From an uncultured candidatus Brocadiaceae bacterium (GTDB lineage: Bacteria > Planctomycetota > UBA11346): a DNA stretch of 60,285 bases. Under the pieces are notes generated by a model, which was not told where the DNA came from, did not search any database, and worked only from the letters and a program-made list of their open reading frames with translations. The stretch covers positions 1-60,285 of the forward strand of contig CAZTGE010000005.1 of NCBI GenBank assembly GCA_964612995.1, given 5' to 3'. The position numbers and the translations under genes are program-made. Shown piece after piece: positions 20,487 through 32,529 of the stretch (positions are counted from its first letter, which is position 1; every line of letters starts with the position of its first letter).

Positions 20487-21752
20487 ATGGAGCCGATCGC
20501 CGTCGCCGATGCCGCCCGTGCCGCCGCCGCCGTCGTGGCCAGCGCCACCACCACCACCAAGAACGCGGCGCTCGCCCGGATGGCGGAGCTGCTCGACGAA
20601 CGGCGTGCGGACATCGTCGCGGCCAATGCCGCCGACCGCGCCGCGGCCGAGGAGCGGGGTATCGAGCAGAACCTGCTCGACCGGCTGTCCTTCGATGGGG
20701 CCAGGATCGATTCGCGCATCGCCAGCCTCGAGACCATCGTCGGCCTGCCCGATCCGGTCGGCAGCGCGACCGCGGCCTGGCGCTGTGCCAACGGTATGGA
20801 TGCCGCGCGCGTCCGCGTGCCGCTGGGCGTGATCCTGATGGTGTTCGAGGCGCGGCCGCACGTGACGGTCAACGCTGGCGCCTTCTGCCTCAAGGCCGGT
20901 AACGCCTGCATCCTCCGCGGCGGTTTCGAGGCCCGCCGGTGCAACGCCCTGCTCGGCGAGTTGTGGGCCACGGCGCTCGCCGCCGCCGGCCTGCCACGCG
21001 AGGCGATCCAGGTCGTCTCCGGCACTCACGCCGAGGTCGGCGAACTGCTCCAGTTCGACAGCCACATCGACCTGGTCATCCCACGCGGCGGTCCGGGCCT
21101 GATCCGGGCGGTGGCCGAGCAGAGCCGGATCCCGGTGATCAAGCATTTCAACGGCGTGTGCCACGTCTATCTCGACAGCGGCATCGACCTCGACCGTGGC
21201 CTGGACATCGCACTCGATGGCAAGTGCCTGATGCCCCAGGTCTGCAATGCGACCGAGTCGGTGCTGGTCCACCGCGACCACGCGCCGCAGCTGCCGCGGA
21301 TCGTCGCCGCCTTCCGCGACAACGGCGTCACCGTACGTGGCTGCCCTGCCGTCTGCGCCGCGGTGGGCGATGTCGAAGCGGCGAGCGAGGAGGACTGGTC
21401 GACCGAGTATCTCGATCTGACCGTGTCGCTGCGGGTGGTCGACGATGTCGACGCCGCCGCCGACCACATCAACACCTACGGCTCGCATCACACCGACAGC
21501 ATCGTCACCGACTCCGAGCCGCGTGCCCGGCGTTTCACGCAGGTGGTCGACTCCTCGGTGGTCCTGACCAATGCCTCGACGATGTACTGCGACGGCGCGA
21601 GCCTGGGCATGGGTGCGGAGATCGGGATCAGCACCGACCGTCTGCACGCCCGCGGACCGATGGGCCTGGCCGATCTGACCACCACCAAGTACGTCATCCG
21701 GGGCGACCATCACGTGATGGGACCGGCCCGCTGCACCGGGGAGGGAGCGTGA
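20487..21752 (+). CDS. proA: gamma-glutamyl phosphate reductase (ProA)-like protein
   Basis: RVPLGVI, KAGNACILRGG, IPRGG, VCNA catalytic Cys, GAEIGIST..LHARGPMGL; several canonical residues differ. Confidence 0.88.
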   Translation: MEPIAVADAARAAAAVVASATTTTKNAALARMAELLDERRADIVAANAADRAAAEERGIEQNLLDRLSFDGARIDSRIASLETIVGLPDPVGSATAAWRCANGMDAARVRVPLGVILMVFEARPHVTVNAGAFCLKAGNACILRGGFEARRCNALLGELWATALAAAGLPREAIQVVSGTHAEVGELLQFDSHIDLVIPRGGPGLIRAVAEQSRIPVIKHFNGVCHVYLDSGIDLDRGLDIALDGKCLMPQVCNATESVLVHRDHAPQLPRIVAAFRDNGVTVRGCPAVCAAVGDVEAASEEDWSTEYLDLTVSLRVVDDVDAAADHINTYGSHHTDSIVTDSEPRARRFTQVVDSSVVLTNASTMYCDGASLGMGAEIGISTDRLHARGPMGLADLTTTKYVIRGDHHVMGPARCTGEGA

Positions 21753-23137
21753 AGCGCGATCTCGACGGCATTATCGGCGAATTCAAGCAGGGCCTGGACC
21801 GGGTCGGCGGGGGCGATTTCGAGCGACGCATCGGCGCCGAGCTGAAGTTTCCGCTGGTGGCCGCAGACGGTTCCGCCGCGCCGCGCGCGGCGGTCGACGC
21901 GCTGTGGGCCTTTCTCATCGAGTCCTGCGGCTGGAGCGGCGAGACCGATCCGGGTACCGGCAGGCTGGTCGGCGCACACCTGAGCGGTCCGCGCAACGAG
22001 ACCGTGGCCTCGTGCGAAACCGGCTACTGCAAGACCGAGTTCTCGCTCGCCCATGCCGGCGACCTCGCCGAGCTGGGTTCGATCCTCGACCGGGTACGCG
22101 CCGATGTGCTACGTTTCGCCGGACAGGAGGGGGTCCGCTTCCTCGCCTACGGTATCCACCCGGTGACCCCGCCGGGGCGCGACCTGCTGATGAAGAAGGA
22201 GCGCGCCGGCTTCTGGGACCGGGCCCTGCCATCGAACGCGGTCATCCCGCCGGAGCGCGGCGACGACGTGCACCTGTTCACCGTCAATGCCGGCAGCCAC
22301 GTCCACGTCGCGGTGCGTCCCGACGAGGCGGTGCCGCTGGTCAATGCGCTCAACGGCCTGACCGGGGCCCAGATCGCGTTGATGGGGCATTCCTCCGTCT
22401 GGCGCGGCGAGGCCGACCCCGATCACCTGGCGATCAGCGAGGTGCTGTGGGACTGGTGGCCGCGTGCCGCCGGCCGTTGCGGCGTGCCCGCACGCCCCTT
22501 CGCCGACGTCGATGACTACGTGCGCGCGATCACCGCTCTGGTGCCGATCTACGCCAAGCGCCCCGAAGGACCGGTGATCCTCACCGACCACGCCAGCTTC
22601 CTCGACTACTTCAGCGCCGAGCGCGCCACCGGGCGCATGATCGACGGCACCGAGGTGGCGGTCGAGCCCTGCGAGGCCGATCTCGCGCTGCACAATTCCT
22701 GCTATTGGTACGACGCGCGGATCTCCCGCTATTACACGGTAGAGAACCGCGCCTGTGATCAGCAGCCGGTCGACGCGTTGCTCGCGCCCGCGGCCATGAC
22801 CCTCGGCCTGGCCGAGAACCTCGCCGGCGCGAGCGAGCTGGTCGCGCGCTACAGCTGGGACGACCTGCGCGCCAGCCGCGACGCCGCGATCCGCGACGGC
22901 CTGCGCGCGCGCGTCGGCGATTGCGTGCTGGCCGATCTCGCCGCTGCCACCCTCGCCTGCGCCGAGGCCGGCCTGCGTGCGCGTGGTCGCGGCGAGGAGT
23001 GCCACCTCGCTCCGCTCGCCGCGCGCCTGGAGCGCGGCGAGAACCCGGCCGACGAGGCCCGCGCCCTGTTCCGCGCCGGTGGCATCAGCGGTCTGCTCGC
23101 CGCGCGCACCCTCACCCCGATCACGGAGAACCCATGA
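21749..23137 (+). CDS. glutamate--cysteine ligase (GCS2/EgtA-like) family protein
   Basis: IGAELKF, SHVHV, ARISRYYTVENRACDQQP; GTGA overlap with proA. Confidence 0.75.
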   Translation: MKRDLDGIIGEFKQGLDRVGGGDFERRIGAELKFPLVAADGSAAPRAAVDALWAFLIESCGWSGETDPGTGRLVGAHLSGPRNETVASCETGYCKTEFSLAHAGDLAELGSILDRVRADVLRFAGQEGVRFLAYGIHPVTPPGRDLLMKKERAGFWDRALPSNAVIPPERGDDVHLFTVNAGSHVHVAVRPDEAVPLVNALNGLTGAQIALMGHSSVWRGEADPDHLAISEVLWDWWPRAAGRCGVPARPFADVDDYVRAITALVPIYAKRPEGPVILTDHASFLDYFSAERATGRMIDGTEVAVEPCEADLALHNSCYWYDARISRYYTVENRACDQQPVDALLAPAAMTLGLAENLAGASELVARYSWDDLRASRDAAIRDGLRARVGDCVLADLAAATLACAEAGLRARGRGEECHLAPLAARLERGENPADEARALFRAGGISGLLAARTLTPITENP

Positions 23138-31366: not shown

Positions 31367-32529
31367 AGTCCGCCTACGATCAAGCCGCGACCAGCGGGCG
31401 CTACGAAGGCCGTGGCGCCCTGCTGGGCAAGTACGACCATGTCCGCATCCACTGGGAGGAGGGCTTCTTTCGCCAGGAGCTCGATCACCAGTTGCGTCCG
31501 GTCGCCGATGAGCAGGGGGCACCCTTGCGCGTGCTCGACCTCGGCTGCGGCGGCGGTGACGGGCTGGCCTTCCTCCGCGAGACCCTCGACGAGGATCTGC
31601 ACCGGCCGCTGGGCAGCTACACCGGCGTCGACATCGTCGATTCGCTGCTCGATCAGGCCCGGGAGCGCTTCGCCGAGAGCGAGACCGTGCGCTTCCGCCG
31701 CGGTGACCTGAGCCAGGGTCTGCCGGTCGAGCCGGGTGAGCCGGCCTACGATCTCTACTTCGCCAGCTTCGGCACGCTGTCGCACCTCGACACCCCGACC
31801 ACCGTGCGCCTGTTCGCCGACATCGCCGCTCACGGTCAGCCCGGTGCGCTGGTCGTCTGCGACTGGCTCGGCCGTTTCAGCTACGAATGGCGCGACCTGT
31901 GGACCGGCACGAGCGACCGCGACGTGTGGATGGACTACCGCATCAGTTACATCTACTCGCCCGAGGAGCGGGCCAGGCGGCAGATCGATAGTTTCCCGCT
32001 GCGTCTGGTCGCGCCGCCCGAGGTCGACACGCTGGTCGCCGCCGCGGCCGAACGCAGCGGCCGGTCGATCGAGGTGGTCACCGTCAAGGACCGTTCGCTG
32101 CTCTGCGGCCGGCATATCGACACCGGCGAGTACAACGGCAATCCCATGCCGCTGCGCGAGCAGCTCAACCGGCTGCATCACGAGGGGGTCGATGCCGACC
32201 TCGAGGCGCTGCGCGTCCGGTTTCCGGCCATGGACCCCGCCGCGCCGCAGGACACCTTCTTCCTCGGTCTCGCCACGGCCTGGAACGATCTGGTCGACTG
32301 CGCCGCGGCGCTGATCGCCGGAGACACACCCGCACCCGGCGGCGAGAACAGCGCCACCGCCGCCGGCCGCGAGGCCCTGCTCGCCGCGGTCCGCACGGCC
32401 ACCACCGGCGCCCCGCCGCGTCCGGCGATCGAAGCGGCCCTCGCTTTCGCCCTGCGCGATCTCGAGCTCGCACTGCAGCACGGCGGCGGCCACGGCCACG
32501 GCCTCGTCGCGGTCCTGCGCCTGGGGTGA
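31363..32529 (+). CDS. class I SAM-dependent methyltransferase
   Basis: VLDLGCGGGDG, YTGVDI, GDL; ATGA overlap with the corrinoid gene. Confidence 0.85.
   Translation: MKSAYDQAATSGRYEGRGALLGKYDHVRIHWEEGFFRQELDHQLRPVADEQGAPLRVLDLGCGGGDGLAFLRETLDEDLHRPLGSYTGVDIVDSLLDQARERFAESETVRFRRGDLSQGLPVEPGEPAYDLYFASFGTLSHLDTPTTVRLFADIAAHGQPGALVVCDWLGRFSYEWRDLWTGTSDRDVWMDYRISYIYSPEERARRQIDSFPLRLVAPPEVDTLVAAAAERSGRSIEVVTVKDRSLLCGRHIDTGEYNGNPMPLREQLNRLHHEGVDADLEALRVRFPAMDPAAPQDTFFLGLATAWNDLVDCAAALIAGDTPAPGGENSATAAGREALLAAVRTATTGAPPRPAIEAALAFALRDLELALQHGGGHGHGLVAVLRLG

Follow-up and report, generated by a model that had tools for sequence, protein, structure and literature searches.

The window analysed here is a stretch of 60,285 nucleotides from an uncultured candidatus Brocadiaceae bacterium of the Planctomycetota (assembly GCA_964612995.1, contig CAZTGE010000005.1, positions 1 to 60,285 of the forward strand). 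Eleven of its genes form a cluster at 20487-32529 in which a paralogue of the proline enzyme ProA (ProA2) and an enzyme resembling glutamate-cysteine ligase (GCL) precede a corrinoid methyl-transfer system with two non-pyrrolysine MttB methyltransferases. The ProA2-ligase pair recurs in bacteria of about ten phyla, and its linkage to MttB is more than chance. The cluster may be a horizontally spread accessory operon for a betaine-type (N-methylated) compound, outside proline synthesis, a reading to which we give slightly less than an even chance.

Results

The ProA2-ligase pair is linked to MttB across phyla

Ligase homologues were scanned for in one genome per species, which returned 80 loci (42-93% identical), and gene counts at these loci come from tblastn searches with the window proteins. 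Single-linkage clustering of open reading frames (ORFs) merged overlapping frames in the high-G+C loci and was used only for spotting recurrent neighbours. Among 8000 candidate proteins scored, 388 were ligase homologues at E ≤0.001; the best 120 of the 388 were 48-61% identical, one of them being the window's own protein. The few that carried a source label came from Planctomycetota/Pirellulales/Thermoguttaceae, Kiritimatiellae, Hydrogenedentes, Chitinivibrionales and Sumerlaeia. The 80 loci are distributed over about ten phyla: Planctomycetota, Verrucomicrobiota with Kiritimatiellota, Hydrogenedentota, Thermodesulfobacteriota, Myxococcota, Nitrospirota, Fibrobacterota, Latescibacterota, Sumerlaeota and Cyanobacteriota. 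A first-pass annotation of this DNA had seen the joining of the ProA-like and GCL-like genes to MttB as a candidate pathway, and the linkage extends beyond the window to these loci.

Of the 80 loci, 72 include 1.5 kb or more of upstream sequence, and in 71 of these a same-strand proA immediately precedes the ligase gene; the exception (L079) has its proA 2.5 kb from the ligase gene. The two genes overlap by 4 nt in 11 loci. Forty-two loci are flanked by 5 kb or more on each side; among them an MttB gene is present in 34, a homologue of the cluster's S-adenosylmethionine (SAM) methyltransferase in 31, the ABC ATPase in 27, a DUF362 gene in 20 and a match of any strength to a short-chain dehydrogenase/reductase (SDR) or zinc-dependent alcohol dehydrogenase (Zn-ADH) in 18. 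The eight well-flanked loci that lack MttB are six cyanobacterial loci, L080 and L081.

Within the window's phylum, evenly sampled, the ligase has a sparse and scattered distribution: 9 of 401 genomes carry it, each from a different genus, whereas the 23 further members of the window's own family all lack it. An MttB-family gene is present in all nine ligase-bearing genomes as against 46 of the 392 without the ligase, a comparison in which related genomes are not independent. In seven of the nine, MttB is on the ligase contig within about 3.5 kb.

ProA2 forms a separate ProA clade

The ProA2 gene (20487-21752, + strand) encodes a protein that scores 513.5 bits against NF001221 (cut-off 289) and 403.7 bits against TIGR00407 (cut-off 317.45). 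The first-pass annotation had placed this gene in a candidate quaternary-amine pathway, and ProA2 is not the sole copy in its genome: a second proA, on contig C28, outscores it (572.4 vs 513.5 bits). A separate, better-scoring proA was also present in each of five other genomes tested (Calothrix parasitica NIES-267, two Thermoguttaceae and two further cyanobacteria), four of which had a proB over the cut-off. The proB of the window's genome is found only as pieces at the ends of contigs C215, C90 and C34. C90 and C34 carry two different C-terminal proB pieces, which suggests a strain mixture or a duplicated gene; the estimated contamination of this metagenome-assembled genome (MAG) is 4.3%.

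ProA2 is 57-64% identical to five ligase-linked ProAs of other genomes, cyanobacteria included, and 46.6% identical to the housekeeping ProA of its own genome. A quick maximum-likelihood IQ-TREE analysis of 84 ProA sequences, from which five rows (L096-L100) duplicating the genes of five cluster loci had been removed, placed the 76 ligase-linked ProAs in one clade (SH-aLRT 100, stem length 0.72) that excludes six housekeeping ProAs and two copies of a third type. The third type is a ProA-like gene (325-334 bits) of Calothrix (L101, G041:C1:3097873-3099099) and of a related cyanobacterium (L102, G044:C1:396051-397277). Its products have Val in place of the catalytic Cys and lack several residues that are invariant in the other compared ProAs, and this paralogue may be inactive or repurposed.

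The linked ProAs were compared with a canonical set made up of the six housekeeping ProAs and five solved ProA/P5CS chains ranging from Thermotoga to human and Drosophila. The catalytic Cys253 in the VCNA motif is kept in 76 of 76 linked proteins. Residue 366 is Met in all 76 and Arg in 11 of 11 canonical proteins, which turns the canonical NASTRF motif into NASTMF. His181 replaces the canonical Arg in 74 of the 76, and Phe133 replaces the canonical Leu in 67. All 76 have His125, where canonical proteins have Asn or Glu, and Asn129, where they have Asp, Glu or Gln. Positions 133 and 366 are taken to line the substrate channel, by hand alignment to ALDH2 and betaine-aldehyde dehydrogenase structures, and position 133 is presumably the site at which betaine-aldehyde enzymes put the aromatic residue of the trimethylammonium box. 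The far end of the ProA2 substrate probably differs from that of gamma-glutamyl phosphate, as these changes at assumed channel positions suggest. The available main text of the P5CS filament paper names no residues that bind glutamate 5-phosphate (G5P). A complex prediction for ProA2 and the ligase, both supplied as alignments, returned a score of 0.00 and no verdict, and is counted neither for nor against binding.

The same residues bear on a stress-proline bypass, in which the GCL-like enzyme would replace feedback-inhibited ProB and give gamma-glutamyl phosphate to a second ProA, so that proline is overproduced under osmotic stress, the pair merely lying beside genes for osmolyte uptake and catabolism. 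In its favour, GCL chemistry makes an enzyme-bound gamma-glutamyl phosphate, and Bacillus subtilis has a separate osmotic proline route consisting of ProJ and ProH; ProA2 exceeds the ProA equivalog cut-off, and the cluster contains an osmoprotectant-type importer. We nevertheless regard the bypass as very unlikely. The Arg of the canonical proteins is replaced by Met in every linked ProA with nearby positions changed too, and the third enzymes of the related loci are of the aldehyde-reductase, SDR and iron-sulfur types. The Pfam-scanned neighbours include no pyrroline-5-carboxylate (P5C) reductase gene, no search of the loci with a ProC query having been made. Finally, the linkage is specifically with methyltransferases, as the comparison of 9/9 with 46/392 genomes illustrates.

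The ligase resembles plant-type GCL

The ligase gene (21749-23137, + strand) matches PF04107 marginally (22.5 bits vs 21), and its product is a predicted GCL-like (GCS2-like), ATP-dependent, carboxylate-activating enzyme. A profile of 27 family members matches the plant-type GCL structures 2gwc and 6gmo over the full length (E 1e-15). The protein is far under the cut-offs of TIGR01436 (25.1 vs 463.15 bits) and of the YbdK family (37.9 vs 176.4 bits). Ligase residues E31, E90, E97, H186, E332 and R334 align with plant GCL and are kept; by analogy with GCL structures we take them to be the metal- and ATP-binding positions. The N-terminal ExE motif, presumably metal binding, reads ELK with loss of the second Glu (RIGAELKF in the window vs RIGTEHEKF in plant GCL). 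The wider ligase family among 1.84 billion representative proteins numbers 254 members at E ≤1e-30 and 1698 at E ≤0.001. ExE is kept in 12 of 12 aligned distant members (24-31% identical), and in that alignment K33 and K95 occur only in the window protein and two closer relatives. Longer, fused forms of the ligase were not found in the search, which is weak evidence. The enzyme looks able to phosphorylate a carboxylate with ATP in a remodelled site.

Membership in a family of carboxylate-amine ligases raises the alternative that the enzyme is a true ligase, which would join glutamate to the demethylated amine to form a gamma-glutamyl amide in the style of gamma-glutamylmethylamide or the Puu pathway, with ProA2 and a dehydrogenase acting on the tagged molecule. 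Gamma-glutamylation of amines before their oxidation is known, for example from the Puu pathway. This alternative is highly improbable in our estimate. ProA-family enzymes act on acyl phosphates and not on aldehydes in the amine part of a conjugate, and the conserved neighbours include no apparent gene for a gamma-glutamyl hydrolase or an amidase. The strict order of proA followed by the ligase gene, with the 4-nt overlap in 11 loci, fits the hand-over of an acyl phosphate better.

The methyl-transfer genes have a distinct set of MttB pockets

The cluster encodes two MttB proteins, both in uninterrupted frames, at 23134-24603 (PF06253, 301.5 bits) and 29131-30669 (PF06253, 176.6 bits), both on the + strand. 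The MttB proteins of the related loci were grouped by pocket signature first, and each group was then found to be monophyletic. Clades B1 (39 sequences), B2 (45) and B3 (13) have FastTree supports of 0.85, 1.0 and 0.98, and the window holds one B1 and one B2 protein, in that order. MtgB is reported to bind glycine betaine through Y97, R312, H348 and F356 (PMC13080624). Alignment to the MtgB structure 9yce gives G108, Y324, D360 and D368 at these positions in B1. The corresponding residues are S/A, Y, Y and T in B2 (S/Y/Y/T in the window protein) and G, Y, D and A/C in B3. None of the three clades is predicted to be an MtgB because the glycine-betaine-binding residues reported for MtgB are not kept.

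The remaining methyl-transfer genes encode a corrinoid (B12-binding) protein, a pterin-binding methyl-tetrahydrofolate:corrinoid methyltransferase and a free-standing MetH-type activation domain (Met_synt_B12), all on the + strand. The corrinoid protein (30683-31366; PF02310, 102.2 bits; PF02607, 50.1 bits) has the DxHxxG motif, as DLHDIG, and the motif is present in 15 of 15 corrinoid proteins examined. NF047996 scores 181 on this protein, below its cut-off of 370, and MtgC-specific models likewise fall below cut-off. The pterin-binding enzyme (28308-29117) matches PF00809 with 75.7 bits and NF005719 with 248 bits, below the cut-off of 259. The activation domain (27565-28263, with an alternative GTG start at 27481) matches PF02965 with 39.5 bits against a cut-off of 25. 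RxxxGY, which we take to be the SAM-binding motif, is present in 10 of 12 activation domains, namely that of the window (RFSPGY) and nine of 11 relatives.

The genome's sole PF14574 RACo-type activator, which carries a 2Fe-2S domain, is on contig C55. At about 13270-17900 of C55 (L115:5276-9911, minus strand) there is a second corrinoid methyl-transfer set, composed of a methyltransferase of the URO-D family (MtaA/MtbA-like), a corrinoid protein 51% identical to that of the window, DUF1638 and the RACo-type activator, with two chaperonin genes following.

Import genes lie between the two halves of the methyl-transfer system on the + strand. They encode a ProV-like ABC ATPase (24600-25643; PF00005; TIGR01186, 312 bits, below the cut-off of 326.6), an ABC permease (25646-26326; PF00528, 96.3 bits) and a binding protein of the OpuBC/OpuCC/EgtUC type (26340-27302; PF04069 (OpuAC), 208.8 bits). 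The closest solved structures to the binding protein are the sensor binding proteins iAChSnFR and iNicSnFR (227 bits), followed by OpuCC, EgtUC and OpuBC (182-208 bits), and the protein is a predicted quaternary-amine binder.

A variable third enzyme accompanies the pair

Three types of gene that the window lacks recur beside the pair in the related loci. In 29 of 80 loci the neighbour encodes a DUF362 protein, about 415 residues long and carrying two 4Fe-4S motifs, an SDR at least 50% identical to the reference SDR is present in 14, and a Zn-ADH directly follows the ligase gene in five cyanobacterial loci. The Zn-ADH of L067 scores 485.6 bits with the equivalog model of Ahr, an NADPH aldehyde reductase, above the cut-off of 470, and the remaining four share 87-91% identity with it. 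Each locus has at most one of the three types; two weak matches were set aside, namely a Zn-ADH in L019 (28% identical, other strand) and an SDR in L058 (30% identical, at a distance of 9 kb). The SDR of L084 lies between the ligase and ABC ATPase genes, the exact slot that DUF362 occupies in L050 and L058. This pattern suggests that the three types are interchangeable enzymes for one step, most simply the conversion of an aldehyde to an alcohol. The sole informative mention of DUF362 in the literature searched puts it in one Pfam clan with the LarA N-terminal domain and gives no function. All three types, like the ATP-using activator and the ProA-type reductase, would fit a reductive direction.

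The opposite direction would make the pathway oxidative and ATP-yielding: an SDR or DUF362 protein would oxidize a quaternary or demethylated amino alcohol to the aldehyde, ProA2 would form the acyl phosphate from it with phosphate and NAD(P)+, and the GCL-like enzyme run in reverse would make ATP, in the manner of glyceraldehyde-3-phosphate dehydrogenase and phosphoglycerate kinase. ProA catalysis is reversible in vitro. To our knowledge, no GCL-family ligase serves as a kinase in cells. The Ahr equivalog in cyanobacteria is a reductase, the oxidation of an alcohol onto low-potential 4Fe-4S clusters would be unfavourable by standard redox potentials, and the SAM methyltransferase would again have no role. 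The acidic B1 pocket (D360, D368) would suit a substrate whose nitrogen has a hydroxyl close by and not a carboxylate, which speaks for oxidation, as do the many host MAG titles that hint at low-oxygen sources (sediments, 750 m water depth, an anaerobic bioreactor); going by these titles, the hosts may be fermenters to which substrate-level ATP would be of benefit. On balance the oxidative direction appears quite unlikely.

The SAM methyltransferase and loci without MttB

The last gene of the cluster (31363-32529, + strand; PF13649, 47.8 bits) encodes a class-I SAM methyltransferase with a helical C-terminal part. Searches of the SAM METHYLTRANSFERASE against NCBIfam, PDB sequences, Atlas and Foldseek gave generic class-I matches only. 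Its AlphaFold model has a predicted local distance difference test score (pLDDT) of 86.7, and the Foldseek matches are small-molecule N- and C-methyltransferases with template modelling (TM) scores by query of ≤0.40.

The pair also occurs without the methyl-transfer genes. The loci of five cyanobacteria hold ProA2, the ligase and the reductase only, and whole-genome searches gave no MttB-family match in any of the five. L081, from the Pirellulales, is a compact SAM methyltransferase/ProA2/ligase/SDR cluster between unrelated genes, and the 21 kb of this locus contain no MttB. The ligase/ProA2 pair is a module of its own because these MttB-less versions exist. Each of the five pair-bearing cyanobacteria has one SAM methyltransferase homologue (35-37% identical) elsewhere in the genome. 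Among 150 other cyanobacteria from their order, 11 also have a member of this family, and all 11 lack the ligase. Exclusive co-occurrence of the SAM methyltransferase and the pair was considered as proof of a link in cyanobacteria and rejected on account of these 11 ligase-less genomes, and the association is suggestive only. In Calothrix (L108:7434-10470) and Rivularia (L109:9346-12033) an asparagine-synthase-like (AsnB-like) amidotransferase gene lies directly upstream of the SAM methyltransferase homologue, and the two could form a separate small pathway.

A MetK gene is within the operon in L012 and L072, and five loci (L015:2656-3672, L044, L047, L073 and L074) have a MetE-like gene between proA and the ligase gene. 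The MetE-like product has about 338 residues, no Pfam match and a weak match to PRK00957, a small methionine synthase (32 bits). Together with the versions without MttB, the MetK and MetE-like genes favour SAM-dependent methylation in the same chemistry, and so keep alive a biosynthetic explanation that combines synthesis with methyl harvest.

On the biosynthetic explanation the SAM methyltransferase, ligase, ProA2 and reductase would start from a glutamate-like acid inside the cell and make an N-methylated amino alcohol or aldehyde that serves as a solute or head group. The importer, MttBs, corrinoid protein and pterin enzyme would feed the methyl groups of imported amines into the folate/methionine/SAM pool, or turn the product over. 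Calothrix presumably contains glutamate betaine. Five features count for this explanation: the SAM methyltransferase homologues in 31 of the 42 well-flanked loci, the L081 cluster, the five of five pair-bearing cyanobacteria with a SAM methyltransferase homologue and none with MttB, the MetK and MetE-like genes, and the natural tendency of an ATP-using ligase, an NADPH-type reductase and an Ahr-type aldehyde reductase to run synthetically. Two papers report glutamate betaine among cyanobacterial solutes, which agrees with it as well (PMC4390839, PMC7824335). Three dedicated MttB clades that lack the betaine residues reported for MtgB would be odd for general methyl harvest from common betaines, and a single operon that makes and demethylates similar compounds looks futile. 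The SAM methyltransferase family in 11 of 150 ligase-less cyanobacteria of the same order is not tied to the pair there, and in Calothrix and Rivularia it adjoins the AsnB-like gene, far from the pair. We judge biosynthesis with methyl harvest to be somewhat unlikely, while giving it appreciable weight.

Proposed pathway

The sequences show the gene families, the conserved linkage, the ProA2 clade with its changed residues, the alternative third enzymes and the MttB pockets; the reactions, their reductive course and the kind of substrate are inferred. In the proposed scheme, the GCL-like enzyme would convert a carboxylate and ATP to an acyl phosphate, ProA2 would reduce the acyl phosphate to the aldehyde with NAD(P)H, and the third enzyme of most relatives (SDR, Ahr-type or DUF362), for which the window and its 92%-complete genome show no gene, would reduce the aldehyde to the alcohol. 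The substrate would be a glutamate-sized acid with a far end unlike that of glutamate, most likely a methylated ammonium. The OpuBC/OpuCC-type ABC system would bring in a quaternary amine. MttB-B1 and MttB-B2 would take off N-methyl groups and load them on the corrinoid protein in its Co(I) state, from which the pterin methyltransferase would hand them to tetrahydrofolate. The MetH-type activation domain would rescue oxidized corrinoid using SAM and a reductant, and the SAM methyltransferase is provisionally counted within the same unit. We hold this whole scheme tentatively, at a little below even probability. Handling of the carboxylate through an acyl phosphate, proposed in the first-pass annotation, gains support from the changed ProA2 residues and from the aldehyde reductase in relatives; its betaine substrate and the direction of the pathway stay conjectural.

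Several points weigh against the scheme. ProA2 passes the NCBI ProA equivalog cut-off and may thus still use gamma-glutamyl phosphate, and the placement of residues 133 and 366 in the channel comes from ALDH2 and betaine-aldehyde dehydrogenase structures and a hand alignment rather than from a ProA-ligand structure. A catabolic pathway gives no role to the SAM methyltransferase, to the MetK genes of L012 and L072 or to the MetE-like genes of five loci. The pair without MttB or an adjacent importer in cyanobacteria, and its compact cluster in L081, are more in keeping with synthesis from a precursor made in the cell than with uptake. It is also hard to see what a cell would gain by investing ATP and NAD(P)H in a compound on which it grows. 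The window's genome, which is 92% complete, has no DUF362 homologue and no SDR-type protein of more than 38% identity, and the alcohol step may not apply to it.

Cluster layout and neighbouring genes

The G+C content of the window is 64-72%, and reading frames were picked by third-position G+C together with family matches. ORF calls and family profile scans place the eleven genes head to tail on the + strand, with the gene content and coordinates that the first-pass annotation had given. Stop and start codons overlap by 4 nt at four junctions: GTGA at proA/ligase and ATGA at ligase/mttB1, mttB1/ABC ATPase and corrinoid protein/SAM methyltransferase. The first three couplings had been listed before and the fourth had not. 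The earlier remark that the cluster contains neither proB nor a RACo/RamA activator also holds, the proB pieces and the sole RACo-type gene being on other contigs.

The gap between the binding-protein gene and the activation-domain gene is 178-262 bp, depending on the start used, and the cluster may consist of two transcription units split at this point. A weak terminator-like hairpin (27351-27374, + strand) provides no evidence of function, such sites numbering 3 in the region against 3.6 expected from shuffles. The flanks of the cluster are unrelated, with methionyl-tRNA synthetase (MetRS) and FlhB genes upstream and a gene for GTP-dependent phosphoenolpyruvate carboxykinase (PEPCK) downstream. 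The FlhB/YscU-family export-gate gene (18892-20208) directly upstream has neither flagellar nor secretion genes among its scanned neighbours. Downstream of PEPCK, positions 35360-41057 carry in a row an extracytoplasmic function (ECF) sigma factor, a FecR-like protein, a C25 (gingipain-type) peptidase with propeptide and an M14 carboxypeptidase.

ORF clustering showed recurrent genes upstream of the pair in related loci. Sigma-54 (NtrC-type) activator genes are upstream of proA in 19 loci (for example L033:2062-3474) and MarR genes are upstream in nine. ORFs of about 130 residues precede proA in 17 loci (for example L012:6144-6536); they have no Pfam match and by eye resemble degenerate receiver domains. 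The idea that these ORFs are carrier proteins was dropped given their receiver-like appearance and their position adjoining sigma-54 activator genes, and they are probably regulators. The window has no sigma-54 activator, receiver-like ORF or MarR gene directly upstream of the cluster.

Seven public sequencing runs hold the stretch 20487-26326; all are DNA and none RNA, and all are labelled microbial mat metagenome and come from two studies. Calothrix and Rivularia are, we assume, mat-forming cyanobacteria, and the overlap in habitat is noted only.

Discussion

The removal of methyl groups from quaternary amines by corrinoid-dependent enzymes is a growing field, relevant to trimethylamine in the gut, to osmolytes in the sea and to the precursors of methane, and few MttB substrates are known. 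The cluster offers three uncharacterised MttB clades and paired ProA and GCL-like subfamilies that travel together across about ten phyla. Once the substrate is identified, the likely gains are a new metabolite of the betaine type, a new acyl-phosphate reduction of a carboxylate by way of a GCL-fold enzyme and a first functional lead for the DUF362 iron-sulfur proteins. There is a consequence for annotation as well: ProA2 exceeds the ProA equivalog cut-off, so pipelines assign it to proline synthesis, probably wrongly. Calothrix parasitica NIES-267, which has been sequenced, carries the module, and the question can be tested wherever a culture exists.

A broader proposal is that the pair and the variable reductase form a new route by way of an acyl phosphate, in which the distal carboxylate of glutamate betaine, gamma-butyrobetaine or another betaine is reduced to an aldehyde and an alcohol. 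Marine Calothrix and Rivularia would make these compounds, and Planctomycetota, Verrucomicrobiota, Desulfobacterota and others in mats and sediments would import and demethylate them with the three MttB clades. This proposal is unlikely to be right. If true, it would add a new class of quaternary-ammonium alcohol metabolites, and methyl groups would pass unnoticed from producers to consumers within microbial mats.

A search of the main texts of open-access papers found no paper that describes the combination of MttB with GCL-like and ProA genes. This agrees with the first-pass annotation, which had called the pathway undescribed, and the combination is apparently so.

The individual parts have counterparts in known systems. 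ProB-ProA and P5CS share with the pair the fold and catalytic Cys of the second enzyme and the expected passage from carboxylate to acyl phosphate to aldehyde. They differ in the first enzyme, which is GCL-like here and not an amino-acid kinase; in addition, ProA2 belongs to a separate clade with the NASTMF motif, and the ordinary proA is retained. The plant-type and proteobacterial GCLs (2gwc, 6gmo) match the ligase profile over the full length, with the presumed metal- and ATP-binding positions aligned. The window ligase, in contrast, is far under the equivalog cut-off, has ELK in place of ExE and has ProA2 rather than glutathione synthetase as its constant partner. Aspartate kinase, aspartate-semialdehyde dehydrogenase and homoserine dehydrogenase take an acid through an acyl phosphate and an aldehyde to an alcohol; this route shares the three-step logic with the proposed pathway, and the enzyme families are unrelated in all steps.

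The methyl-transfer half of the cluster resembles the glycine betaine:tetrahydrofolate systems built on MtgB, as in Desulfitobacterium hafniense, in which a non-pyrrolysine MttB, a DxHxxG corrinoid protein and a pterin methyltransferase are likewise encoded in one cluster. In the window cluster the MttBs lack the betaine residues reported for MtgB, the MetH-type domain replaces RamA, and ProA2, the ligase and the SAM methyltransferase are additional. The MtgB-MtgC-MtgD system of Ruegeria pomeroyi also wires MttB-type demethylation to pieces of a split methionine synthase, namely a corrinoid domain and a bidirectional folate methyltransferase; it uses glycine betaine and serves methionine synthesis too, and its abstract mentions no ProA2/ligase/reductase module (PMC12478193).

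The closest precedent in logic appears to be the choline system of Eubacterium limosum. In that system, as reported, the kinase MthK must modify choline before MthB demethylates it, and the MthK-MthB-MthC-MthA set comprises an ATP-using enzyme for the non-amine end together with an MttB member, a corrinoid protein and a tetrahydrofolate methyltransferase (PMC12155760). The kinase of that system acts on a hydroxyl to give phosphocholine, whereas the cluster described here would combine a GCL-like activator with an acyl-phosphate reductase and, in many relatives, a further reductase.

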